A model generated the notes under the pieces. It did not search any database. It saw nothing but the letters and a program-made list of their open reading frames with translations, and was not told the DNA's origin. 12,149 nucleotides of DNA from an uncultured Clostridia bacterium (GTDB lineage Bacteria; Bacillota; Clostridia; Christensenellales; UBA1242), in assembly GCA_947625955.1 (NCBI GenBank), contig CANQQH010000021.1, forward strand, positions 1 through 12,149, read 5' to 3'. Of this stretch, positions 154 through 11,311 are shown in pieces. The stretch's first letter is position 1; each line of letters begins with the position of its first letter. Both the position numbers and the translations under genes were made by a program.

Positions 154-954
154 ATGAGTGGAGATTATAGTCCAGCAATGAAAGAAGAGTTCATGAATCT
201 TTTGAAAAAACAAAACATTCCGCTTTATGGCCCCACTGGGCACACATTGGATTATAGTGAGCTCGACCCCGACAAAGACGGCAACATGGCTTGCGTTCCA
301 ACAGCAGGGCAGGATTTAGATATGCTTGATTCGAACTATAAAGTTGTTTTGTCTCCCGATGTTAGTCAAAAATTTAGAGACATCATGATGAAAGCTGCCA
401 ACATCAACTATGAAGGCTCAAAAACAGAAATTGGTTTTCTTATGGTGGGCGAAGAAAAACCAGACAAAACTATTGCAATTAACAGAATGGAAATATACAG
501 CATGAATATTGGACGCGCTGGTTTTAATGATGCTCAGCACGACCTCTTAATGAAACTTGTTGACATCATGAAAGCCTATGGCGAAAAGAATAACAGAAAG
601 CCATTTTTTATTTTCGGTCACACCCACCCTGAGCAGCGCGAATTTCAAAACTTTGTTTCCAATTCTTGGAGCCTTGGCGACCTTTGGTCAAGTTATGTTG
701 CCAATAAAGTCTTACGAGGCAGAGTGCAATATGCAGATTTGTTAATAACTCCTTCTATGGATACCAACCTTTTATTTTTCGAAGATGGCAAAGTCGTTGA
801 TGAAAATTTCAAGGGCTTTTATAGATTTGCAGAAGGGATTCATTTAACCGACCTTAATGGGAAAATTGAGAGAATAAACCATGCCTACTCCGACCCAAAC
901 AGTGCGCCGCAACGACTCGACCCAAAACAATATAGCCCAGACATCTTGAAATAG
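154..954 (+). CDS. Candidate JAB/MPN+ (JAMM-like) metalloprotease-fold protein, 266 aa
   Basis: ORF with good RBS and promoter. Motifs: E92-x-x-G-x-L-x-x-G (EIGFLMVG), FIFGH156-T-H158-P, and S173-L-G-D176. These resemble the JAMM pattern E...HxH...SxxD, but the HxH-to-S spacing is longer than the canonical 7. The CDS call is firm; the family call is tentative. Confidence 0.8.
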   Translation: MSGDYSPAMKEEFMNLLKKQNIPLYGPTGHTLDYSELDPDKDGNMACVPTAGQDLDMLDSNYKVVLSPDVSQKFRDIMMKAANINYEGSKTEIGFLMVGEEKPDKTIAINRMEIYSMNIGRAGFNDAQHDLLMKLVDIMKAYGEKNNRKPFFIFGHTHPEQREFQNFVSNSWSLGDLWSSYVANKVLRGRVQYADLLITPSMDTNLLFFEDGKVVDENFKGFYRFAEGIHLTDLNGKIERINHAYSDPNSAPQRLDPKQYSPDILK

Positions 955-978
955 AAACTGGGCGGCGGACTTTTAATA

Positions 979-1009
979 TAAAAAAATCGGCAACCCGCCG
1001 ATTTTTTTG
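979..1009. terminator. Bidirectional rho-independent terminator: A-tract, GC-rich hairpin (atcggc / aaccc / gccgat), T-tract
   Basis: Stem 986-991 pairs with 997-1002, loop of 5 nt, flanked by aaaaaaa (979-985) and ttttttt (1003-1009). It sits between the convergent genes 154..954(+) and 1023..1754(-). Confidence 0.6.
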
Positions 1010-1022
1010 TGTTGTTATTTTA

Positions 1023-1754
1023 TTAAAAAATAATTCTGTTCTTTTTCAAAAAGTCGATGATTTGGTCAACAGGGATTGCAAAATTCATGCCTTCGGCGCT
1101 ATCAATTCCCGAAACAATTGCGCCGATAACCTTTCCATTTTCGTTGAAAATTGGGCCGCCAGAGTTGCCACCGTTAACAGCGCAGTCGGTCATGAGAAGC
1201 ATCTTGCCGTTGACATTTCGGCTCTTGTCGCTAACAACGCCGCTTGTTATGCAGGTTCCATAGCCGAGCGAGTTGCCAACAACATAGACCTTTTCGCCAA
1301 TCCTGACCTTTTTGAAGTCTTCGAACTTCATGGTTTTGGCTTCGCGTGGAAGATTTTTTATTTTCACAAGTGCAAGGTCCACCCCCGCCCCTGAGCCGTG
1401 ACGATCGTCGCCAAGCGCAACAACCTCAGCCGACACATTCTTTCCGCAGAGCTTCACGTCAACATTTTTGCACGAAGTTCCGTCTTCAAAGGTCACAACG
1501 TGAGTGTTCGTGATGGCGTAGCCAAGCTCATTAATCAAAAAGCCCGAACCCGAATGAACATACCTTCCGTCTGCCCATCGAATTTCAAGGATGCCATTGA
1601 TGTTCTTTTCAAAAACATCGGCGCCGCCTGACGCCTCCTTTGAACTTTTCGACGAAACCAAGTCGCTTTCACTATAAACTTGCCCGCAATAGACGCACCT
1701 AAACTTGCCGCCCTCAATCTGCTCGCAATTTCCATTACAAATTTTGCATTTCAT
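1023..1754 (-). CDS. N-terminal zinc-ribbon fused to a trypsin-like (S1 / Trypsin_2-type) serine protease, 243 aa
   Basis: N-terminus reads MKCKICNGNC...FRCVYCG (CxxC...CxxC). Catalytic triad context: ...ITNTH*VV, D*LALVKI, GNS*GGPIF (classic GxSGG serine motif). RBS AAGGAG lies 9 nt upstream. Separated by 22 nt from the upstream TIR gene, so same operon. Confidence 0.9.
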   Translation of the reverse strand: MKCKICNGNCEQIEGGKFRCVYCGQVYSESDLVSSKSSKEASGGADVFEKNINGILEIRWADGRYVHSGSGFLINELGYAITNTHVVTFEDGTSCKNVDVKLCGKNVSAEVVALGDDRHGSGAGVDLALVKIKNLPREAKTMKFEDFKKVRIGEKVYVVGNSLGYGTCITSGVVSDKSRNVNGKMLLMTDCAVNGGNSGGPIFNENGKVIGAIVSGIDSAEGMNFAIPVDQIIDFLKKNRIIF

Positions 1755-1776: not shown

Positions 1777-4700
1777 CTAGGTTCTTTTCCAACCCGAGCA
1801 CATCTTCAATTTTTCTGCCGCATCTTCAGGTGACAATTTATTAAAGTTTGTGTAGGTGTTCATCATCAGTCCTGAACCTGTTATCCACTCACCAGTTATA
1901 TATGCTGTTTCCAAGCCCGAAAAATTGAAGGCATCATCGCCAATTATTGTAACGGACGATGGAATTCTGATAGTTTTGAGAGACTTGCTATGTTCAAACG
2001 CACTTTGACCAATGTTGGTAACATTCCCCAAAAGAACTTTTGAGAGATTGCCGCAACTTCTAAATGCTTTATCGCCAATTACAAATGTGCTTGAAACTGT
2101 GCTGAGGTCAACGGTTTCAAGGCTCTCGCAAAATTCAAACGCGCCTTCGCCAATACCTGTTAGGCTGTTTCCAAATTGAACTGTTTTAAGGTTCCTGCAA
2201 TTTGAGAACGAGCTTTTGCCAATGCTTGTTAGGCCATTTCCAAAGTATACTTCTTGAAGGCTGTTGTTGCCCTCAAATGCATAGTCGTCAATTTCGGTGA
2301 GGCCGTTTCCAAAGTATATCACGCTGAGCTTCTTGCAGTTTTTGAATGTATAGTTATAGCCGCCGATAAGCTTTCTCTTCGCGCGGAACTGCATGGTTTC
2401 CACTCCGTCGCCAATGCTGAGCACGGTGAGTTGGCTGCATCTATCGAATGCCTGTTTGCCAATTTCGGTCACATTGTTTCCAATGTAGATTTCGTTGATT
2501 TTGTCGTTCCAATAGAAGGCTTTTGAGCTGATGGCCGTGTAGCTCTCTGGAATGATGAGTTTCTTTATGGTCTTGGTTCTTATACCGTTATTGAACTTTT
2601 TGCCAACTGCTGTCACTGGCTTGCCACGGTAGGTTTCAGGCAGCACGAGTTCGCCGTCGAACCCTTTGAGGGTGCCGAGCGAACGGATGGTGTAGCCGCT
2701 GTCGTTTTTGTCCATACGCGCGATGATTGCGTCGTCGTAGTAAACAGAGGTGGTGTTGTTTTTATAAACATAGGAAAGGCCAATAACCGCAACGCAGATA
2801 ACAAGAGGAATCAGCATTTTGAATATTGAGCCAACGCCCCTGACATTTTGAATCATTATAATGTCGAGAATTATCAACAGCACGCCAAGCAGCATATAGA
2901 GAAGAAGGAAGAAGTTGCTCTCAAAGATACCAACCGAAACAATATAGAACGCGCTGTTATAGCCAAGATAACCGCAAACTGGAATGAAGAGCAGCACCGC
3001 TGAGCATAAAAGCGAGATAATCAATAGGATTGAGCAAACAACTTTCGTCGCCAAGCGCTTTCTTTTTCTGTGGGCAAATTCTTTTTGCCTATCAATGATT
3101 TGATTGACTTTCAATAGTTCTTTCTTGATGCCAATTTCGCTAAGCTTTGTTGCCACATCGCGGATTTCAAATAGGATTGGGTCTTGGCTGACATTCTTTT
3201 TGATGCTGAAAACATAGCTTTCGTCTGGCAACTTATGTTTTTTGCAAAAATCGCGATAGAGCTTTTGCACTTTTTCTTCGAGTTCTTGTATCTCATTCCT
3301 ACGAGATTCCATGAACTTGTTGGTTTCTCGCATATGATAATCATCAATTGCCTTTTGGATTTGTGCGGAATAGTTGAAAATCTCGGTTTTGGAAGGTCTC
3401 AGGTGTTTGATAACATCGTCGAACTCTTCGGGCTTTGACAAAAGCTTGCTATATTGATCAATCGTCTTTTTGAAGATCATATATTTGTTTGCATTCTGCT
3501 TCTCAGGATGAACTTCATTAAATTGCGTTATCGCGTCGAGATAGTCTTTGTCGCGCGAAATGAAGTCGGTGAGATGCACGAGTTCAAGCAGGTTCCCTAT
3601 TCTGCGCTTTATCAAGAACTTGTTGAAATACGCGTCATAGTTATGAACATCAGTTTGCAAAAGCAAGTCGTTATAGCTATCCGCCATCTCAAAGTTTGGC
3701 TTTCTCTTTGCTTCAGCAAGCCCGAGCAGGTTGTCAATGAACTGTTGGAGATAGTCAATGAAGAGCGTGTCTTGCTTCTTTGGAATCATCTTCAAAACAA
3801 AGTCGAAGATTTTGCTTGCCTGCTCATCCTTTTCGGCTTTCACAAGGTCAATAACTTGCGCAAAAATCTTGCTTGTTGCGTAGTCGTTGAAGCCATAGGA
3901 ATAAACTTCCTTTTCAAGCACATCAAAGTTCTTCTCGTTTTTCAAAAACTCAGGAAGTTCTTTCTTGTTTGAAAGGTTCTTGATTGCAAAGTTTTCATAG
4001 AGCGCTTCCTTATCCGACTTGTCAACTTCCAAAATGTTCGCATAGCAGAGGTTGCGCGACTTTGGCACCTTGCTCAAAAACTCGCGGTTCATTTTGATAT
4101 ATTTGTCTGTGTTGGTTATGGTTTTCAAAACGCTCTTGAAGGTTTCTTCGTCTTTTGTGTCGAGCGCCTCGCGATACATGATGTCTGCGAGTTCGCTGAT
4201 CTTGGCTGGCGACGACTCAGGCAGCGAGATATACTCTTCAAATTCCCTCAAATGCTTGTGATACTTAACTCTCGAATAGAGCGCGTCATAATAAACCGCC
4301 CTCTTCGCTGGGTCAGACTCGGTGGAAATAGCCTTTTCAATGTTGTCGAAATCATAAAGTGCTCTTTTCTTTGCGATATATTGCTGCACATTTTGGCATC
4401 TGGTGTCTGCCAGTTCCAAAATCCAATATGCCGCGCTGAGCTTTGGCCTTTCCTTGATGAGGCTCTCGGCCATTGAGCTCGCCGTCACATAGTCTTCTTC
4501 ATCCAAGAAGTTTTGAAGCGTGCCGATTTGCGCGTGGTCGGACGCTGAAACAACGCCATTTCTCTCAATTTTGAGGTCGCGCTTCTTGATTTGTTGCTCA
4601 ATTACATTCTTCTTTTCAACATTGATTTTTCCGTATTCCTTACGGTCGATGTCTGGAATACGGTTCTTGCTTTCAGAGTACTTACCAACGAAGCTGATGA

Positions 4701-5619
4701 TCTTGTCTTTTGCGTCGAACTCGTCGAGCGCAATACCTTGAATTTTTCCGCTGACGCCCGGCAACCTTTCAATAATCTTGCCATTTTTGAACGCAAAAGT
4801 GATGCTGTTGAGGTGTTTTTCCTCATTCTTTATCATCTGCAAGAATCTTGTGTATTCATTCTGCACCCATTGAGTGTGGAGATAGGATTCGTCGAGGCAG
4901 ACAATGATCATGCAAGGCGAAGAATAGAGCGCATAGAGAATGTATGCCTCATAGTCAACACCGAGATTTTTGTTGAGAACTTCTTCCGAAAAGAATGGAT
5001 TGAAGCCCGCTTCTTTGAGCGCCTTATAGAGTTTCTCTGCCTCGAAATAGTCTTCGGTATGCCTTTTCTTGTTGTCGACTTCGCTGACCTTTGTACAGAT
5101 GAAGCAGTCATAGCTAACACCCGAACTTTTGAGTTCGTTGAACTTGTTCCTTATGTCGTCAATTTCGGTGCCTTTTTGATAATAGACCTTCTTTTGCTCA
5201 GGAGTTGCAAGGTCGAGCGCCTTTTTATAGTTCTTGTCTTCGGTGAACTTTTTGTTGATGACCTCATAGCAAATTGGTTGAAGACATTTCTTCACCTCTT
5301 TGGTGTTTTCGTCTTCGCGCAAACTATTCAAATATTGCACTTTTGCGTTTGCAAGCGCCATTCCAAAGTAGGCTTCGGGCTCTTCTTCGTCTTGCTCGGC
5401 AGCCTTTTGATACATCTGGTATGCGTCTTCAAATCGTCCCTTGTCAAGATCGCGTTCAGCCTCTTTCAAAAGGTCGATAACGCTTTCAGCGGCCTCATGC
5501 TTTGGAACTGTGAATGAACTGTTACAATATTTGCATATAATAACCCCATTTTTTGCTTCGTTGATGTCCAAATCCCCTTGACAGTTCGTACACTTTAATT
5601 GCGTTAGAAGCAGGCTCAT
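1777..5619 (-). CDS. 1280-aa multidomain protein: Zn-ribbon / TPR-like / TIR domain / long alpha-helical solenoid region / 3-4 TM helices / C-terminal BspA-type leucine-rich repeats
   Basis: Long ORF with an AAGGAG RBS. Domains by eye: CxxC...CxxC at aa 10-32. TIR-like block at aa ~170-300 (YDCFICTK...EDYFEAEKLYKALKEAGFNPFF...CMIIVCLDESYLHTQWVQNEYTRF), which aligns well to bacterial TIRs such as TcpB. Hydrophobic helices at aa ~860-952. Repeats of ~23 aa, FGNGLTxIGxxAFxxCxxLxxV, at aa ~1021-1245. Confidence 0.9.
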   Translation of the reverse strand: MSLLLTQLKCTNCQGDLDINEAKNGVIICKYCNSSFTVPKHEAAESVIDLLKEAERDLDKGRFEDAYQMYQKAAEQDEEEPEAYFGMALANAKVQYLNSLREDENTKEVKKCLQPICYEVINKKFTEDKNYKKALDLATPEQKKVYYQKGTEIDDIRNKFNELKSSGVSYDCFICTKVSEVDNKKRHTEDYFEAEKLYKALKEAGFNPFFSEEVLNKNLGVDYEAYILYALYSSPCMIIVCLDESYLHTQWVQNEYTRFLQMIKNEEKHLNSITFAFKNGKIIERLPGVSGKIQGIALDEFDAKDKIISFVGKYSESKNRIPDIDRKEYGKINVEKKNVIEQQIKKRDLKIERNGVVSASDHAQIGTLQNFLDEEDYVTASSMAESLIKERPKLSAAYWILELADTRCQNVQQYIAKKRALYDFDNIEKAISTESDPAKRAVYYDALYSRVKYHKHLREFEEYISLPESSPAKISELADIMYREALDTKDEETFKSVLKTITNTDKYIKMNREFLSKVPKSRNLCYANILEVDKSDKEALYENFAIKNLSNKKELPEFLKNEKNFDVLEKEVYSYGFNDYATSKIFAQVIDLVKAEKDEQASKIFDFVLKMIPKKQDTLFIDYLQQFIDNLLGLAEAKRKPNFEMADSYNDLLLQTDVHNYDAYFNKFLIKRRIGNLLELVHLTDFISRDKDYLDAITQFNEVHPEKQNANKYMIFKKTIDQYSKLLSKPEEFDDVIKHLRPSKTEIFNYSAQIQKAIDDYHMRETNKFMESRRNEIQELEEKVQKLYRDFCKKHKLPDESYVFSIKKNVSQDPILFEIRDVATKLSEIGIKKELLKVNQIIDRQKEFAHRKRKRLATKVVCSILLIISLLCSAVLLFIPVCGYLGYNSAFYIVSVGIFESNFFLLLYMLLGVLLIILDIIMIQNVRGVGSIFKMLIPLVICVAVIGLSYVYKNNTTSVYYDDAIIARMDKNDSGYTIRSLGTLKGFDGELVLPETYRGKPVTAVGKKFNNGIRTKTIKKLIIPESYTAISSKAFYWNDKINEIYIGNNVTEIGKQAFDRCSQLTVLSIGDGVETMQFRAKRKLIGGYNYTFKNCKKLSVIYFGNGLTEIDDYAFEGNNSLQEVYFGNGLTSIGKSSFSNCRNLKTVQFGNSLTGIGEGAFEFCESLETVDLSTVSSTFVIGDKAFRSCGNLSKVLLGNVTNIGQSAFEHSKSLKTIRIPSSVTIIGDDAFNFSGLETAYITGEWITGSGLMMNTYTNFNKLSPEDAAEKLKMCSGWKRT
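1885..2559 (-). other. BspA-type leucine-rich repeat array (LRR_5-like), ~9 repeats of ~23 aa, at the C-terminus of the 1280-aa protein
   Basis: Repeated consensus hxxV-x-FGNxLTxIGxxAFxxCxxLxxV, typical of Treponema/Bacteroides/Listeria-type surface LRRs. Confidence 0.7.
2764..3042 (-). other. Transmembrane helix cluster (3-4 predicted TM segments) of the 1280-aa protein, preceded by a polybasic HRKRKRL stretch
   Basis: Hydrophobic runs VVCSILLIISLLCSAVLLFIPV, (AFYIVSVGIF), FFLLLYMLLGVLLIILDIIMI and IFKMLIPLVICVAVIGLSYVY. Positive-inside rule suggests the N-terminal TIR half is cytoplasmic. Confidence 0.6.
4720..5112 (-). other. TIR domain region of the 1280-aa protein (aa ~170-300); putative catalytic Glu at aa 255 (nt 4855-4857) in WVQNE*Y
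   Basis: Aligns to the TIR alphaC motif W-x-x-x-E-L (WPARELDGL in TcpB; WCLDEL in plant TIRs). The YD-[FC]-F-I-[SC] opening strand is present. Confidence 0.7.
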
Positions 5620-5671: not shown

Positions 5672-7741
5672 TCACTCCATAAGTTTTTCAATATCTTCTT
5701 TTTGAACGGATGGAGTTATCTCGCTTATTGCCTTTTCAAAATCTTCTTGGCAAATGTATTTTTCTTCGGTTTTCAGTGCCCTTAGCGCAGAAATTTCTTC
5801 CACGCGGTCCATGAGGTTGGTCATGTCGGCGCCATTATAGCCATTAGTCTTGGTCACCACGGCCGAAACATTGAAGTCGCTCGAAATTGAAACAACGCCT
5901 TTGTGCTTCACCTTTTCAAGCCTGTGCTCAATCATATACTTTCTTGCGTCGTCGTCTGGCAAGCCAACATAGATTCTTGTTCCAAACCTGCCCGGCCTTA
6001 TGAACGCTGAATCGATGTCCCAAGGCTTGTTGGTTGACGCAACCAAGAACAAGATGTTGTTGGTTTTCTTGCCATACTCTTCAATGCCCTGGATCTGCGC
6101 CAAAAATTCTGAGCGCAACTGCTTTGCTATTTGCGACCTTGTGTTCTTTGGCGAGATTGAATCCATTTCGTCAAAATACACAACCGCGCAAGGGAATCTT
6201 CTTGCTTGGTCGAAGAGTGCGCGCACCGCCTTCTCGGAGTTGCCCACCCCTTGGTTTAGAAGATCCGACGGCTTGACCGAGCAGAACTTCGCGCCAATCT
6301 CGTTTGCGATTGCAGCTGCGATCATTGTTTTGCCAGTTCCCGGAGGACCATAGAGGAGCAGTCCCCCGCCGCTCTTTCGAACGTAGCCCTCAAACGCCTT
6401 TGGATTTTTTAGCGGCAAAAGCACCTTGACTTCAACCACTTCCTTAACGCTTTCAAGCCCCGCGATGTCGTCGAACCTTATGCTTGGCAGGCTGTCCCAA
6501 TTGAACTTGAAATCGTCGTTGACTCTATCTTCATCGCTGAGCACCTTTTCCTCAGGCGAACCGAACTTGCGCTCGTCGTCCTTTGCCTCAGGTTTTGGCT
6601 CAACTTGCTTTGGCTCAATTGGTTTTGAGGTTTTATCATTTTTGAGTTCGATTTCATAGACCTTGTCAGGGAAGTCCTGCTCGGTTATTTTCAAAATATC
6701 TTCATTCGTTGGAGATGAGAGTTTCGAAATTCTTTTCGACTGCCTCGTGACAGTCTCTTCAAAAATATTGCGCACGTCTCTTGCATTTCCAAAATTATTT
6801 TCTCGATTTGCAAAGAGCGTGCTGAAATATTTCCTTATCAAATTTTTCGCACTTTCACTCAAAATATATTGATTTTTTGCGCAAAAACCTTCAAAAATCT
6901 CAAAAAGTTCTTCTCCGTTGTAGTCTGGGAAGAAGATGAAATTCTTGAATCGGGAGCTCAGCCCCGGGTTTGAAGAAATGAATTTTTGCATTGGATTGGT
7001 GTAGCCCGCAACGATGATGGCAATGTCGTTTCGCTTGTCTTCCATTTCTTTTAGTATTGTGTCGATTGCCTCTTGCCCAAAGTCGTTCATGCCGCCGTTT
7101 GCGAGAGTGTAGGCCTCATCGATAAACAAAACGCCGCCCTCAGCTTTTTTCAAAACGTCTTTGGTCTTGGTTGCCGTTTGACCAACATAGCCAGCCACAA
7201 GCCCAGCCCTGTCAACTTCAACGAGTTGCCCCTTGCTGAGAATCCCAAGCGCGCAATAAATCTGCGCAATCAGCCTTGCAACCGTGGTCTTGCCCGTTCC
7301 GGGATTGCCCGTGAACACCATGTGATACGACATCTCTGGCACACTCATCCCGCGCTCTTTTCGCATTTGGAAAACTTTGATTTGGTCAATCCAATCGCTA
7401 ACTTGGTCCTTAACGGTTTTGAGGCCGATCAAACCATTAAGCTGCGAGAGCGCCTCTTCAAGCGTGATTTTTTCATTGTTTTGAACGCTCACATCCGCAC
7501 GCTCTTCTTCGGCACTTTTCTTTTGAACGCCAATACTTTCAGCCATTGCAATCAAACTTTTTGCGCGGCTGAACCTTGCCTTTTGAAGTTCGCCAGTGCT
7601 CTGCTTCGCCATTTTGAGCATTTGCTCAGACGCCAGCAAATAATACTTCTTTGCCAGAAGTTTATCTCCGTTTTCTTGGCACTCTTTGGCTTTGCGATAA
7701 TACAAATCAAATGTTTCCGTGAGTAAGTTTATATTCGACAT
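5672..7741 (-). CDS. MIT-like N-terminal domain + tandem AAA+ ATPase (module 1 SpoVK/CbbX-type; module 2 classical AAA with Vps4/katanin-like SRH), 689 aa
   Basis: Walker A1 GNPGTGKT (nt 7286-7309), Walker B1 VLFIDEAY, and an LIGLxxVK...GNPGTGKTTVAR...GGVLFIDEAYxL signature. Walker A2 GPPGTGKT (nt 6326-6349), Walker B2 VVYFDEMD, and SRH-like ASTNKPWDIDSAFIRPGRF. The N-terminal 75 aa form a helical TPR/MIT-like region (DLYYRKAKECQENGDKLLAKKYYLLASEQMLKMAK). RBS AAGGAG. Confidence 0.9.
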   Translation of the reverse strand: MSNINLLTETFDLYYRKAKECQENGDKLLAKKYYLLASEQMLKMAKQSTGELQKARFSRAKSLIAMAESIGVQKKSAEEERADVSVQNNEKITLEEALSQLNGLIGLKTVKDQVSDWIDQIKVFQMRKERGMSVPEMSYHMVFTGNPGTGKTTVARLIAQIYCALGILSKGQLVEVDRAGLVAGYVGQTATKTKDVLKKAEGGVLFIDEAYTLANGGMNDFGQEAIDTILKEMEDKRNDIAIIVAGYTNPMQKFISSNPGLSSRFKNFIFFPDYNGEELFEIFEGFCAKNQYILSESAKNLIRKYFSTLFANRENNFGNARDVRNIFEETVTRQSKRISKLSSPTNEDILKITEQDFPDKVYEIELKNDKTSKPIEPKQVEPKPEAKDDERKFGSPEEKVLSDEDRVNDDFKFNWDSLPSIRFDDIAGLESVKEVVEVKVLLPLKNPKAFEGYVRKSGGGLLLYGPPGTGKTMIAAAIANEIGAKFCSVKPSDLLNQGVGNSEKAVRALFDQARRFPCAVVYFDEMDSISPKNTRSQIAKQLRSEFLAQIQGIEEYGKKTNNILFLVASTNKPWDIDSAFIRPGRFGTRIYVGLPDDDARKYMIEHRLEKVKHKGVVSISSDFNVSAVVTKTNGYNGADMTNLMDRVEEISALRALKTEEKYICQEDFEKAISEITPSVQKEDIEKLME

Positions 7742-7754
7742 ATCTCGTTCCTTT

Positions 7755-8321
7755 CTACTCTGCCATTTTCTTTTTCAAGCTTTCAAGTTCCTTTTCAATC
7801 TCGCTTTCAATCGAGCTTTCGGCAGTTGCTTCGTTCGTCATGAGTGAATCAAGTTCCTTGTTTTCTTCCTCAGTTCCGGCCGACGCCGTTGTGAACGACG
7901 ATTCGGTCTCGTTCATGAACTCTTCCATTTGTTCAGTTTGAACTTCAACGCCAATCATTGCCTCAGCAAACTGCTTTTGCACCTTTGCGAAGTCCGACTC
8001 TTTTGTGAGCTTCATCATGTCTTTGCTGAGCGAGCTCATACCTTTGAGAAAGTCCGCCGTCATTGCCGACATATCTTTCATTTGCGAAGTGATTTCGAAG
8101 TTTAGTTTCATCTCATAGACTCTGCGCTGCTGAGTGATTGTCATTTTGAGCCCAGCGAGAGCGAGGTTATATTGCGCCGTGAGCCCTCTTTGTTTTGCCT
8201 GCTTGCCCGACTCAATATAGCCCTTTTTCTGCTCTTCAAGTTTTTGAATTTGCTTGTTCATTTCGTTGATTGTCTTTTTGATTAGCATCTTTTTTTCGAT
8301 TTCTTTTTTACTAACACCCAT
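7755..8321 (-). CDS. Snf7/ESCRT-III-like protein, 188 aa, with a C-terminal MIM1-like motif
   Basis: Basic N-terminus, then coiled-coil core. The Met-rich helix MKDMSAMTADFLKGMSSLSKDMMKLTKESDFAKVQKQFAEAMIGVEVQTEQMEEFM closely parallels CHMP1-family alpha3-alpha4. The C-terminus EIEKELESLKKKMAE resembles the MIM1 consensus [DE]xxLxxRLxxL[KR]. A 13-nt gap with an RBS separates it from the downstream AAA gene. Confidence 0.75.
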   Translation of the reverse strand: MGVSKKEIEKKMLIKKTINEMNKQIQKLEEQKKGYIESGKQAKQRGLTAQYNLALAGLKMTITQQRRVYEMKLNFEITSQMKDMSAMTADFLKGMSSLSKDMMKLTKESDFAKVQKQFAEAMIGVEVQTEQMEEFMNETESSFTTASAGTEEENKELDSLMTNEATAESSIESEIEKELESLKKKMAE

Positions 8322-8334
8322 AATTTTTCCTCAA

Positions 8335-8937
8335 CTATTCCTCTGGATTTTCCGAGGTTTTTTTGCTTCCCTCAGCAAACATTTCTTGCTCAGCTTCAAC
8401 TTGGTCCTCAGTTTCGAACATGGCAAGCAAAGCATCGTCGTTTGCGTTTGCACCATAGATGCTTTCGTTCTTCTCATATGCCTCTTCAACCTGCTTGAAA
8501 GTCTCATCTGCCGAGGTCAAAACGTCCTCTGCCGAGATCCTGTTTCCAAGCGCTTTGTTGAGAAATTTTGCGAGCCCTTTTTGGTCAGCAAGCAAATTCC
8601 CAAGCGACGCCTTTGACGCGTTTTTGAAAAACTTATTGTCGTCAATTGTGTTTTTCAGCTTGTTCAAAAGACGAATGTTATACATCAAATACATCGCTCT
8701 TTGCACGTTCTGCTCTCTGTCGGCTTTGAGGTTGGTTATCTTCTTTGCATAGAAGAGCCTGACGTCCTGAGATTTCTCCGCCCTGCCCTTTGCCATAAGT
8801 TCGTCTATCTGCTTGCTCTTTGAAGCGAGGTCTTCTTCAAGGTCTTTTTCCTCTTGCTCCAATTTGCAAATTGCGTCAACCACATTCTCACGAGTGAGTT
8901 TGTCATATTTATTTTTGAAAAAAAACATAATTTTCAC
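8335..8937 (-). CDS. Second Snf7/ESCRT-III-like paralog, 200 aa, with an acidic C-terminal tail. The ORF track gives a GTG start at 8937, but the ATG at 8928 (MFFFKNK...) has the better-placed GGTG RBS.
   Basis: Coiled-coil helical protein. The segment ISAEDVLTSADETFKQVEEAY matches the Snf7 LDIDKVDETMDEIREQVE region. Acidic tail reads EDQVEAEQEMFAEGSKKTSENPEE. Confidence 0.6.
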   Translation of the reverse strand: MKIMFFFKNKYDKLTRENVVDAICKLEQEEKDLEEDLASKSKQIDELMAKGRAEKSQDVRLFYAKKITNLKADREQNVQRAMYLMYNIRLLNKLKNTIDDNKFFKNASKASLGNLLADQKGLAKFLNKALGNRISAEDVLTSADETFKQVEEAYEKNESIYGANANDDALLAMFETEDQVEAEQEMFAEGSKKTSENPEE

Positions 8938-8940
8938 CTA

Positions 8941-9282
8941 CTATATCTTTGAATTTCTGTCGGCAATTGCGAGTTTTATTTGCGTGAGCATTGACTTTAT
9001 TTTCTTGTCAACTTCGCCGTCTGCCTTAACGAGCGCGATTCGCATATCTTCAATAAAATGCTTAATTTTCGTGTCATACTCAACAACCTTTGGATCGTCG
9101 GATGGAATGAGATACTTGATTTTTTCCTTTGTTTCCTTCAAGTCTTCCACCATTTCTTCGTTTTCGCCAGCGAGCAAAATCAAGGCGTCGATTGCTCTTT
9201 CATTCTCGCTGATAAGTTCGCGGTTTGCACCAACCTTTTCAGCTGATGATTTCTTTCCAAATATTTTTTTGAATAAACCCAT
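8941..9282 (-). CDS. Small (113 aa) all-helical hypothetical protein with an N-terminal amphipathic basic motif MGLFKKIFGKK
   Basis: ORF packed 3 nt from the next gene. An AAGGAG RBS lies in the 14-nt gap to the upstream gene. No recognisable catalytic motif. Confidence 0.7.
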   Translation of the reverse strand: MGLFKKIFGKKSSAEKVGANRELISENERAIDALILLAGENEEMVEDLKETKEKIKYLIPSDDPKVVEYDTKIKHFIEDMRIALVKADGEVDKKIKSMLTQIKLAIADRNSKI

Positions 9283-9296
9283 TTTCTTTCTCCTTT

Positions 9297-10349
9297 TTAT
9301 TTAAGTTTGTTTCCGCAACCTGAACAGAATGTTGCGTCGGCGTCATTTTCTTTTCCACACTTTGAGCAAACTTGTTTCTCTTTCACAACCTTCTTGCCGC
9401 ACTTTGAGCAGAACACGTCGTTTGCTTTGAGCTCAGCACCGCAATGTGGGCAGAATGTTTTTTGCGCGGCAGCAGCCTTATGCTTTCCACCCTCTTGATT
9501 TGGATGCCCAATAACTTTCAAAACCTCATAGTAGGCGTTTCTGTCTTGAAGTTCAAGCTGACGAAGATACTTTTCTCTTTCCCACTCTTTGTCGTCGAGC
9601 CTCTCAACTTCTTTGAGGTATTCCTTTATCTTCTCTTGTCTCTTAGCCTCGGCAGCAGCGTCTTCAACGGCATTGCTGTCCTCTTCGGAAATTCCAAGAT
9701 ATTCAATGATGAAGTCAACGAGCGAAATACCCCACGACTTGTCGAACTTCTCGCTCAAAATCTTTCCCGACTTTGTTGCAATACTCTTGCGGTTTGCGTC
9801 GAACTGGTCATAGGTGAGCTTTGCCTCTTTCACAACTTTCAAGAAGCAGTCTGCAAACTCGTCAACAACGGCGGCAGAGAATCTCTTTTTGAACTCTTGC
9901 AAGTCAAACTCCTTCTTCACACCCACAACTTTCCTGAAAAATTGCTCTGGGTTTGAAATTGAGATTCCAAACTGACCTCTTGCCCCAACGCTGACAACCT
10001 TGTTGCTGGCTTCGTCGCGATATTTGATTTTCTCAGGTGTGCCCCACAAAATCAAAACGCTGGTGTCTTTGGGCATATAGATGATGTCAACCGAGAAACC
10101 TTTCTTCCAGTTCTTCACTTCGTCTTTTGTTTCAAAAACATTATAGTGACCGCTCTTATAGAACTTCCCATTGTCGCCCCCCTTGATAACATAAGCGTTG
10201 TGAGTGAATGGAACTTCAAACATTGCATCCTTCTCGCGAATCTCGTCAGACACCCTGACGAAAAGCACGCTGTTGTCGTCAACCTTGGCGTTGCAATGAT
10301 TCTGCTCAAACTTGATAATTTGCTGTGATTTTTTAGAAAATAAACCCAT
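9297..10349 (-). CDS. SPFH/Band_7_1-like (YdjI / COG4260-like) protein with a C-terminal double zinc-ribbon, 350 aa; first gene of the operon
   Basis: N-terminus MGLFSKK... The N-terminal half has the MG[LI]F...F.V...A.VI..G......SG.Y.V.T pattern recalled for Band_7_1 (so-called virion core protein) family members. The C-terminus has CPHCG...CSKCG and CSKCG...CSGCG zinc ribbons. RBS AAGGAG 9 nt upstream of the ATG. The SPFH assignment rests on remembered family features only. Confidence 0.8.
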   Translation of the reverse strand: MGLFSKKSQQIIKFEQNHCNAKVDDNSVLFVRVSDEIREKDAMFEVPFTHNAYVIKGGDNGKFYKSGHYNVFETKDEVKNWKKGFSVDIIYMPKDTSVLILWGTPEKIKYRDEASNKVVSVGARGQFGISISNPEQFFRKVVGVKKEFDLQEFKKRFSAAVVDEFADCFLKVVKEAKLTYDQFDANRKSIATKSGKILSEKFDKSWGISLVDFIIEYLGISEEDSNAVEDAAAEAKRQEKIKEYLKEVERLDDKEWEREKYLRQLELQDRNAYYEVLKVIGHPNQEGGKHKAAAAQKTFCPHCGAELKANDVFCSKCGKKVVKEKQVCSKCGKENDADATFCSGCGNKLK

Positions 10350-10390: not shown

Positions 10391-10419
10391 ACTATATAAC
10401 TATATACATAATATGTCAA
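10391..10419 (-). promoter_or_regulatory. Strong sigma70-like promoter for the minus-strand operon: TTGACA (10419-10414), 17-nt spacer, TATAGT (10396-10391)
   Basis: Hexamers read on the reverse complement, followed by the AAGGAG RBS (10364-10359) and the ATG at 10349. A tandem AACTATATA / ACTATATAC repeat overlaps the -10 region. Confidence 0.55.
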
Positions 10420-10813: not shown

Positions 10814-11311
10814 TTGGAGAATAGCATGATAAAACTAAAACAATATCGAGACCCATGGCTCGCAGAAAATTTCGATGAATTTATAGGGTTCTACCCACGC
10901 GAATATTTTGTCTTTGACAATTTCTCGTCGTTTAAGGTTCTTTATAACGGCGTGCTTTATTCCACCGTTGAACACGCATATCAGGCAAGCAAATTTTTGG
11001 AAACCGCCCCTGAAATCGCAAAGCAAATTACCGAAAGCTATTCGGCGCACGAAGCGCAAAAAATCGCCTATGCAAACAAAGACAAGCAGCGCGCGGATTG
11101 GGACATCATCAAGGTTGACTTCATGGAAAAACTTTTGCGAGCAAAACTTGAACAAAACCCTTATGTTAAGAAGAAACTTCTTGAAACTGAAAACTACATG
11201 ATATGCGAAGATTCACCAAAAGATAGTTTTTGGGGTATCGGGCCCGACAGAAAAGGGCAAAACCAACTTGGCAAACTTTGGATGAAACTTCGAGATGAAC
11301 TAAGAAAATGA
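10814..11311 (+). CDS. NADAR-domain (YbiA / DUF1768-like) protein, predicted ADP-ribose / NAD-derivative-processing hydrolase. The ORF track starts at TTG 10814; the likely true start is the ATG at 10826, with a GGAG RBS at 10816-10819.
   Basis: Motifs FDNFSSF, STVEHAYQASKF, ADWD and ENYMICEDSPKDSFWGIGPD...GQNQLGKLWMKLRDEL match the NADAR consensus (FSNF / EH.YQA.KF / DW / P.D..WG.G...G.N.LG..LM.VR..L). Confidence 0.85.
   Translation: MENSMIKLKQYRDPWLAENFDEFIGFYPREYFVFDNFSSFKVLYNGVLYSTVEHAYQASKFLETAPEIAKQITESYSAHEAQKIAYANKDKQRADWDIIKVDFMEKLLRAKLEQNPYVKKKLLETENYMICEDSPKDSFWGIGPDRKGQNQLGKLWMKLRDELRK

Follow-up and report, generated by a model that had tools for sequence, protein, structure and literature searches.

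Recognition of an MIT-interacting motif 1 (MIM1) by an MIT domain is taken to set Asgard archaea and eukaryotes apart from the crenarchaeal Cdv system (PMC7240154). For bacteria, ESCRT components other than PspA/Vipp1 are said not to be found (PMC10936438), and a Vps4-like ATPase regulating ESCRT-III is said to be absent (PMC7619361). Ravi et al. (PMC11237479 and its supplement) described PspA/Snf7-AAA+ associations, in which either the ATPase has an inactive first cassette or archaeal-type Vps4 genes have a displaced snf7 neighbour, and in which a MIT-interacting motif goes unmentioned; the YdjI-PspA pair of Bacillus subtilis provides a precedent with an SPFH protein (PMC10936438, PMC11237479). 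In this study, we analyzed a 12,149-nt stretch of DNA from an uncultured Clostridia bacterium (contig CANQQH010000021.1 of assembly GCA_947625955.1; the whole stretch is hereafter the window). Its minus strand carries seven closely packed open reading frames (ORFs), which run from 10349 down to 1023 and encode, among others, a 188-aa protein (E188), a 200-aa protein (E200), a 113-aa protein (p113) and an ATPase with an MIT-fold N-terminus and two AAA cassettes (MIT-AAA). The intergenic gaps of 13-52 nt, a promoter-like site ahead of the first gene and a terminator-like hairpin past the last one indicate that the seven genes are one operon of uncultured gut Clostridia. With a probability of roughly 55%, we propose that this operon encodes a bacterial ESCRT-III-type membrane machine, which would act like ESCRT-III/Vps4 through a non-orthologous motor and a putative docking of the E188 tail to the MIT-fold domain of the ATPase. 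A full-text literature search returned no prior description of such a module, the nearest being the PspA/Snf7-AAA+ associations (PMC11237479), which have another type of ATPase.

To place E188, homologues were collected at two depths: 651 were detected in total, the best 120 of them 71-96% identical and derived from Clostridia metagenome-assembled genomes (MAGs) of animal guts, and a profile search of 1.84 billion cluster representatives yielded 367 clusters at E ≤1e-3, including 189 at E ≤1e-10. Scored alone against Pfam Snf7 (PF03357), the window protein reaches 15.3 bits (E=0.016), below the gathering score of 27.3. Snf7 is, however, the sole Pfam family that recurs among its relatives, found in 8 of 22 and then in 14 of 90 of them at E<0.01 (best 1.4e-9), and one relative that is part of a fusion protein (P0384) attains the gathering score with 27.3 bits. 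Furthermore, a profile of 90 family sequences matches CHMP2A (7zcg_B) at E=7.6e-5, in an alignment that is collinear over 143 positions and spans the whole core (profile 7-149, CHMP2A 4-142). Since it is the relatives and the family profile that match Snf7/CHMP2A, membership of E188 in Snf7 is transitive and holds at the family level; the same applies to the "Snf7-like" label given by the initial annotation, which is borne out for the family and weak for the window protein by itself.

An AlphaFold2 (AF2) model of E188, with a mean predicted local distance difference test (pLDDT) score of 67.7, contains helices at residues 5-45, 48-105, 111-145, 151-164 and 171-187. Among PDB structures, Foldseek ranks 1-11 for this model are occupied by CHMP1B, CHMP2A/3, CdvB and Asgard ESCRT-IIIB (probability 0.80-0.99, E 0.045-0.33), with Vipp1 and Snf7 structures ranking lower. 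With moderate confidence, the modelled fold thus corresponds to the ESCRT-III layout of an alpha1-alpha2 hairpin, alpha3/4, alpha5 and a flexible C-terminal region. A PspA-type identity was considered and rejected, given that PspA_IM30 (PF04012) has no Pfam match in either the 22 or the 90 family members and that Vipp1 appears only at Foldseek rank 12 or beyond (>=12). We conclude that the Snf7/CHMP branch of ESCRT-III has a bacterial member in E188.

The initial annotation had further claimed that the last 15 residues of E188 fit MIM1 at five of six defined positions. These residues are indeed encoded at 7758-7802 (-), as EIEKELESLKKKMAE, but the register had to be corrected. When every 12-residue register was scored against the MIM1 consensus [DE]xxLxxRLxxL[KR], the best and sole good one was aa 172-183 (ESEIEKELESLK), which starts two residues before the quoted 15; it matches four of six positions strictly and five of six only if Ile is accepted for Leu, with Glu at the Arg position, while the quoted residues alone offer no register above 2/6. 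Composition-preserving shuffles of the tail match the observed score in 1-3% of trials. By score alone, the MIM1 match is therefore suggestive, not decisive.

It is the conservation among homologues that lifts the tail motif beyond chance, and the orthologue alignment that had been proposed as a check gave a conserved tail both in the 120 close homologues and across 150 cluster representatives. In the former, the tail is near-invariant, reading TE..I[ED][KR]ELE.LK[KR][KR]M, and the ~25 residues ahead of it vary freely. For the latter, the best 150 representatives of 50%-identity clusters were aligned to the family model with Ile175 set as p0. Hydrophobic residues occupy p0 in 96%, p4 in 98%, p7 in 96% and p11 in 89% of these representatives; acidic residues (D/E) occupy p-3 in 69% and p1 in 84%; and K/R are found at p8, p9 and p10 in 49%, 62% and 69%, respectively. 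At p3, the position of the MIM1 Arg, K/R make up 43% and E 30%. The resulting family consensus, [DE]xxΦ[DE]x[KR/E]ΦxxΦ[KR]KKΦ, has at its core the MIM1 pattern, [DE]xxΦxx[KR]ΦxxΦ[KR]; five of the six MIM1 positions recur in the family logo, and the sixth is K/R in 43%. Judged by these alignments, the window's subfamily appears to depart from the family pattern at the Arg position only, and the conservation indicates that the E188 tail is under selection.

A second motif, [ST]DxE[IL][DE]x[LM][IV], lies ~20 residues before the tail and is conserved more strongly than the tail itself, with column frequencies of D 73%, E 76%, I 67%, L 66% and I 65% in 131 representatives and with E156 invariant in A2 and A4. 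This motif resembles the acidic alpha5 helix of ESCRT-III proteins, and we refer to it as alpha5-like.

The putative receptor of the tail is the ATPase's N-terminal domain, which the initial annotation had described as a MIT-like three-helix region of ~70 aa. In structural terms this description was upheld: the AF2 model, built from a 28-sequence alignment, has helices at residues 2-24, 27-47 and 50-69 with pLDDT 95-98, followed by a disordered linker (pLDDT <50 at aa 74-83), and the top Foldseek matches in the PDB are MIT domains, with probability about 1 and template modelling (TM) scores up to 0.79. They comprise the CdvC MIT in complex with CdvB, spartin, VPS4B, yeast Vps4-Vps2, MITD1, VPS4A, katanin p60 and calpain-7; further MIT matches are VPS4A (9.9), katanin (9.7), Vps4 (9.7), LIP5, ULK3, spastin and USP8. 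Both AF2 and Foldseek thus return the MIT-like three-helix bundle whose absence had been named as grounds for abandoning the idea. At the sequence level the description finds less support, as Pfam MIT (PF04212) does not match the ATPase at any E up to 10. With the first 114 aa as query, a word-index search gave only four proteins, and the set was widened by searching with aa 1-370; the profile of the N-domain family matches the Sulfolobus Vps4-like MIT (2v6y) only at E 0.038, with consensus TPRs scoring better, and the first hairpin is read by sequence profiles as TPR-like. The Sulfolobus domain is nevertheless the only natural full-domain sequence match. As modelled, the ATPase starts with a MIT-like three-helix bundle that a flexible linker follows. 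Conservation among 17 orthologues is higher in helices 2 and 3 (0.85 and 0.79) than in helix 1 (0.68), and in Vps4 it is helices 2 and 3 of the MIT domain that form the MIM1 groove (PMC7240154).

The motor behind this domain is of another kind than the Vps4 that the initial annotation had envisaged. The first cassette, AAA1 (aa 95-357), matches CbbX (3syk) at E 8e-59, possesses an AAA_lid_6, and hits the NCBIfam models of SpoVK (9e-95) and CbbX (8e-76), both below the equivalog cut-off; its Walker A and Walker B motifs are intact, as is the pore loop GYVGQT, which is kept in orthologues and one paralogue. The second, AAA2 (aa 418-686), is nearest to the D2 rings of VAT and p97 (E 1e-83, versus only 8e-42 for katanin), and has intact Walker A and B motifs together with a pore loop 1 that contains no aromatic residue (NQGVG; HQGAG in relatives). 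On the NCBIfam model of CdvC the ATPase scores 184 bits against a cut-off of 650. Orthology to Vps4/CdvC was rejected on these grounds, that is, the two cassettes, their nearest relatives and the CdvC score; the ATPase may act like Vps4, yet it is no member of the Vps4 family. Short forms with only MIT and AAA1 are common (L020, L023, L026-L028 and many P-hits), which indicates that the CbbX-type ring is the conserved core. Likewise, the absence of AAA2 from many orthologues (e.g. L020 and L023) and from a paralogous system described below suggests that it is dispensable for the core function. As the aromatic pore loop is found in AAA1 and none in AAA2, threading is assigned to the cassette that is not Vps4-like, and AAA1 is, from its sequence motifs, the likely substrate-threading ring. 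CbbX, which among solved structures is the nearest relative of AAA1, pulls the C-terminal tail of its substrate into the pore.

The ATPase gene had been reported to adjoin that of E188, and it does so, with 5672-7741 starting 13 nt downstream. The linkage recurs in related genomes. A genome scan returned 29 loci, and in all 21 orthologous loci with enough flank (21/21) the Snf7-like gene has a MIT-AAA gene downstream, in the order SPFH-zinc ribbon (ZnR), p113, E200, E188, an optional TPR-TIR-LRR gene, MIT-AAA and usually then trypsin. In a paralogous system of 36-38% identity, the pair is present in reversed order in 4/4 loci (L025-L028) and has the CbbX-type cassette only: a 375-aa MIT+CbbX-type ATPase is encoded directly upstream of a Snf7-like gene, with the protein tail IDADL(AEL)EALKKQL. 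One such pair, in L027, is accompanied by ZnR-TIR-LRR, SPFH-ZnR, a coiled-coil protein and a RuvB-like/TnsA-nuclease protein. Six divergent MIT-AAA proteins were also traced to contigs. In L030, which encodes the distant MIT-AAA P0229, a Snf7-like gene (E 6e-61 to the family) lies directly upstream, and its product ends in the tail DEEIDQKIDAIRQKM, a 6/6 match to relaxed MIM1; in L031, a more divergent Snf7-like gene is located two genes from MIT-AAA. The linkage between Snf7-like and MIT-AAA genes is thus strong but not universal.

E200 was examined as a candidate second subunit. Aligned with the broad Snf7-like family by hhalign, it gave P=4.7e-4 and a probability of 32% over 162 collinear columns, which run from its MxxFKxK N-terminus to an alpha5-like DDALLAMFETE motif; there E200 ends, without a MIM1-like terminal helix. 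Its comparison with the narrow E188 family was not significant, and it had no match among Pfam and PDB sequences. On this alignment, E200 is probably a second, divergent ESCRT-III-like subunit. For p113, neither the narrow E188 family nor the broad-family hhalign revealed a significant relation to the other operon subunits.

Building on the folds, family membership, conserved motif and gene linkage described above, we suggest how such a machine might work. The SPFH/zinc-ribbon protein would supply a membrane platform, for which the YdjI-PspA pair of B. subtilis is a precedent, and E188, probably together with the divergent E200, would polymerise on the membrane. From the polymer, the flexible C-terminus of E188, composed of the acidic alpha5-like motif, a disordered linker and the terminal amphipathic helix, would project outward, so that the terminal helix (aa 172-188) could be captured by the MIT-fold domain of the ATPase, most likely in the groove between helices 2 and 3 as for MIM1. 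Capture would raise the local ATPase concentration, upon which a hexamer may form, and the CbbX-type first ring with its canonical aromatic pore loop would then pull, thread and extract the subunit, leaving the polymer remodelled or recycled. The Cdc48-D2-like second ring may be an accessory, the short paralogues being without it. We put forward only tentatively a more far-reaching form of this proposal, in which the operon is a genuine bacterial ESCRT-III/MIT-ATPase machine: the MIM1-like tail would be read by MIT folds on a CbbX-type motor and possibly by other effectors, the MIT-MIM code would be older, convergent or horizontally transferred, and membrane remodelling would be coupled to TIR, protease and nuclease effectors. 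The RuvB-like/nuclease protein of L027, with its helical N-terminus, is possibly a further tail-reading effector of this kind.

Several observations weigh against tail docking of the MIM1 type. In the window's subfamily, the signature Arg of MIM1 is replaced by Glu178, and the tail helix 171-187 is modelled with a pLDDT of only about 50. Moreover, a helix with Φ at i, i+4, i+7 and i+11 between charges is of a generic kind, amphipathic or coiled-coil, and its likeness to MIM1 hence proves neither homology nor binding. A tentative hidden Markov model (HMM) alignment to the VPS4A MIT domain (only 8.6 bits) pairs Glu68 of the window ATPase with Glu68 of VPS4A, which we take to be one of the acidic residues that pair with the MIM1 Arg; such a pairing would speak against a simple charge swap with Glu178 of the tail. 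One register instead pairs Lys61 with VPS4A Glu68, but a compensatory swap between Glu178 and the MIT domain was rejected as evidence because the alignment is too weak. As for linkage, the helical neighbours of MIT-AAA in L033, L035, L036 and L037 are not detectably Snf7-like and have different tails, and one planctomycete homologue has no MIT-AAA within 10 kb and a degenerate tail.

With these points in mind, the ATPase could still act on the Snf7-like subunit while docking elsewhere, be it at the alpha5-like motif (aa 155-165), at the acidic C-terminus of E200 or through a groove of the MIM2, MIM3 or MIM4 type, in which case the terminal helix would serve autoinhibition or filament packing. 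The stronger conservation of the alpha5-like motif compared with the tail, the missing Arg, the retention of the tail helix in fusion proteins where it is internal, and the several distinct binding modes of eukaryotic MIT domains (PMC9477494) all agree with this alternative, which we nonetheless regard as unlikely, for the conserved MIT helices 2 and 3 are those that form the MIM1 groove, the tail keeps the MIM1 spacing and its terminal basic cluster across 50%-identity clusters, and E200 has no such tail and is not the gene adjoining the ATPase. Still more doubtful, in our view, is that the N-domain is a generic TPR-like adaptor or oligomerisation module on a SpoVK/CbbX-type chaperone for the TIR-LRR, protease or SPFH protein, with the tail an ordinary amphipathic helix for membrane or coiled-coil contact and the MIT-MIM1 likeness coincidental. 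That the N-domain profile matches consensus TPR repeats best and Pfam MIT not at all, that some MIT-AAA loci have no detectable Snf7-like gene, and that the TIR, trypsin and SPFH genes accompany the ATPase with roughly the same fidelity as the Snf7-like gene would fit such a chaperone; what argues against it is that the only natural full-domain sequence match is the Sulfolobus Vps4-like MIT and that the adjacency of ATPase and Snf7-like genes survives gene reshuffling (L026-L028, L030), while the TIR gene moves or inserts variably.

A different kind of alternative concerns the purpose of the cluster rather than its docking. It might be primarily an anti-phage or conflict system, in which the Snf7-like polymer forms a signalling or effector scaffold, whether to disrupt membranes or for abortive infection, and the ATPase keeps it disassembled; this is compatible with tail-MIT docking, and we judge it rather improbable. 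The Snf7-like module is accompanied by, or fused to, TIR and a trypsin-like protease and, in relatives, RuvB-like AAA proteins with a NERD or TnsA nuclease as well as FtsK fusions; XRE-HTH and kinase/PP2C/vWA neighbours and a locus between genes for type IV secretion system (T4SS) coupling proteins suggest mobile, variable "defence island" contexts; and NADAR and JAB-like genes flank the operon. Nevertheless, no PADLOC system model is matched beyond generic AAA and protease domains, the phage and plasmid collections hold no homologues, and the core genes, with 60-80% identity and kept synteny in many MAGs and on chromosomal contigs as long as 823 kb, fit a housekeeping function better than a fast-turnover defence island. 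The ESCRT-III-type membrane machine with putative tail-MIT docking is the reading that we retain.

The features of the window are listed in the following table.

Table 1. Coordinates of the operon, its gene products and their motifs within the 12,149-nt window
Feature	Position	Strand	Basis or remark
Promoter-like site TTGACA-17-TATAGT, 11/12	10391..10419	(-)	~40 nt 5′ of first operon gene; consensus match only
SPFH (Band_7_1) protein, 350 aa, two C-terminal zinc ribbons, YdjI-like	9297..10349	(-)	Pfam Band_7_1 2.7e-16, Zn_Ribbon_1 2.3e-16
p113, helical, 113 aa, N-terminus MGLFKK, conserved operon member	8941..9282	(-)	Without assigned family
E200, 200 aa, putative second divergent ESCRT-III-like subunit	8335..8937	(-)	Broad-family hhalign
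E188, 188-aa Snf7-family ESCRT-III protein	7755..8321	(-)	Family profiles, AF2 model, Foldseek
Acidic alpha5-like motif KELDSLMTNEA of E188, aa 155-165	7827..7859	(-)	Column frequencies, model helix 151-164
MIM1-like amphipathic C-terminal helix of E188, ESEIEKELESLKKKMAE, aa 172-188	7758..7808	(-)	Conservation and register scoring
12-residue MIM1-like register of E188, ESEIEKELESLK, aa 172-183	7773-7808	(-)	Register scoring
MIT-AAA ATPase gene, 689 aa	5672-7741	(-)	ORF; starts 13 nt past E188 stop codon
MIT-fold three-helix N-terminal domain of ATPase (modelled), aa 1-70	7532..7741	(-)	AF2 and Foldseek
Variable low-confidence linker, ATPase aa 71-94	7460..7531	(-)	pLDDT <50 at aa 74-83; poor sequence conservation
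AAA cassette 1, CbbX/SpoVK/EccA type, ATPase aa 95-357	6671..7459	(-)	Profile matches, Walker and pore-loop motifs
AAA cassette 2, Cdc48/VAT D2-like, ATPase aa 418-686	5684..6490	(-)	VAT/p97 D2 matches, motifs
1280-aa Zn-ribbon/TPR/TIR/LRR protein, variable accessory or effector operon member	1777..5619	(-)	Pfam LRR_5 2e-44, TIR_2 1e-6, TPR_11
243-aa Zn-ribbon and trypsin-like (HtrA-type) serine protease, last operon gene	1023..1754	(-)	Trypsin_2 4e-27
Terminator-like hairpin past last gene	974..1014	(.)	Consensus match only

Across related loci, p113 and E200 genes are conserved, the SPFH gene is kept upstream of the Snf7-like genes in most loci, and the trypsin gene stands beside the ATPase in most; the TPR-TIR-LRR gene is also present, often duplicated, inserted or moved. 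By analogy, the SPFH/zinc-ribbon protein likely recruits the ESCRT-III-like subunits or serves them as a membrane scaffold. The layout of the 1280-aa protein resembles that of Toll-like receptors: an N-terminal Zn-ribbon is followed by TPR, TIR, a long stretch of helices and 3-4 hydrophobic segments (aa 855-953), and leucine-rich repeats of the BspA type make up the C-terminus. Three operon proteins have zinc ribbons, the protease and the TIR-LRR protein N-terminally and the SPFH protein C-terminally, where there are two; their recurrence suggests a common assembly or recruitment element. An MxLFxKK-type N-terminus is common to the SPFH protein (MGLFSKK), p113 (MGLFKKIFGKK), E200 orthologues (MWPFKSKYDKL) and the E188-family consensus (MxxFKxKxxKE); compared with the latter, window E188 (MGVSKKE) has lost the hydrophobic pair. 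These N-termini resemble the alpha0 membrane-insertion motifs of ESCRT-III. Outside the operon, the flanking gene at 154-954 (+) encodes a 266-aa protein with an HTHP...S..D (JAB/MPN-like) motif and without Pfam match, and that at 10814-11311 (+) a NADAR-domain protein (E 4e-30; PADLOC candidate PDC-M42C, 2.8e-10); both domain types are common in conflict systems.

Beyond the orthologous loci, the MIT+CbbX-type architecture is widespread (L030-L037) and occurs with trypsin-like proteases, TIR, SPFH-ZnR, RuvB-like AAA+ and XRE-HTH. L030 also has a kinase/PP2C/vWA set, and L036 has two MIT-AAA genes. L035 sits between a pair of genes for T4SS coupling proteins, a setting that suggests it is carried by a conjugative element. 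Helical proteins of 188-189 aa (L035:4080-4649 and L037:1374-1940), encoded two genes upstream of a divergent MIT-AAA, share an acidic tail, …QQIEDIDD and …KQLDDLDD, which may be a different kind of C-terminal docking motif. The Snf7-like domain is also found as the N-terminal ~180 aa of large fusion proteins, namely with FtsK/SpoIIIE (P0295, P0298 and P0310) and with RuvB-like AAA+ carrying a winged helix and a NERD or TnsA-like nuclease (P0299, P0349, P0354, P0364 and P0378). In L027 (10584-12869), the RuvB-like/TnsA protein is encoded as a separate gene right after the Snf7-like gene and has a helical N-terminal domain of its own. It is surprising to see an ESCRT-III module combined with DNA translocases or nucleases. 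A phage or plasmid origin was rejected, no homologue being present in either collection, and so was assignment to a known defence system, as PADLOC returned only generic AAA (IetA, TRIP13) and protease-domain matches and the Snf7-like, E200, p113, SPFH and TIR-LRR proteins had no system match.

Compared with the eukaryotic and Asgard ESCRT-III proteins of the Vps2/CHMP2, Did2/CHMP1 and Vps24/CHMP3 class, E188 shares the Snf7-family fold as well as the acidic alpha5-like motif, the disordered linker and an amphipathic helix at the C-terminus, in which Φ stands at i, i+4 and i+7 and which, as in MIM1, has an acidic residue three positions before the first Φ and basic residues past the last. Ile stands for the first MIM1 Leu, as it does in Asgard MIM1-like motifs (PMC7240154). 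As in those systems, two ESCRT-III-like paralogues appear to be encoded (E200 probable), with the tail on one only, and like Vps4 the ATPase is predicted to have an N-terminal MIT-fold three-helix bundle on a flexible linker. Unlike in MIM1, the signature Arg is Glu in the window's subfamily and K/R in 43% of the wider family; also unlike the eukaryotic and Asgard systems, the motor is non-Vps4, ESCRT-I, ESCRT-II and winged-helix partners are absent, the host is bacterial and the tail-MIT binding is putative. The crenarchaeal Cdv system differs further, since CdvB has a proline-rich MIM2 and no MIM1 (PMC7240154), whereas the E188 tail is a MIM1-like helix, and since the window has no CdvA and an ATPase with two cassettes of different clades.

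Among bacterial systems, the ydjFGHI operon of B. subtilis (PspA with the SPFH/zinc-ribbon protein YdjI), likewise from Bacillota, is similar in that an SPFH protein with C-terminal zinc ribbons is encoded with a protein of the ESCRT-III superfamily; by analogy with PspA/Vipp1 systems, a role in membrane stress or repair is plausible here. It is dissimilar in that a dedicated MIT-AAA ATPase is present in our operon and no YdjG or YdjH homologue was recognised. Unlike PspA/Vipp1, E188 is of the Snf7 type, with no PspA_IM30 match and best fold matches to CHMPs rather than to Vipp1/PspA. In the dyad of PspA and a two-AAA ATPase (PMC11237479), the N-terminal cassette is inactive, whereas both cassettes here have intact Walker motifs. 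The first cassette belongs to the CbbX/SpoVK/EccA clade, and the established tail-pulling of CbbX is the action proposed for it; the ATPase departs from that clade by its MIT fold, its second, Cdc48-D2-like cassette and its ESCRT-III-type neighbour, and in none of the three NCBIfam models does it reach the equivalog cut-off.

Should the docking prove wrong, a widespread bacterial ESCRT-III family of the Snf7 and not the PspA type (367 clusters at 50% identity), with fusions to FtsK- and RuvB-type ATPases, would still be of interest. If it is true, bacteria run the logic "ESCRT-III tail to MIT to AAA+ disassembly" on a different motor, which bears on how ESCRT-III dynamics were controlled before Vps4 and offers a compact seven-gene system for biochemical dissection. 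Overall, the logic of the module resembles that of ESCRT-III with a MIT-ATPase, and what is new compared with the known systems is the non-orthologous motor, the bacterial host and the different set of partners.

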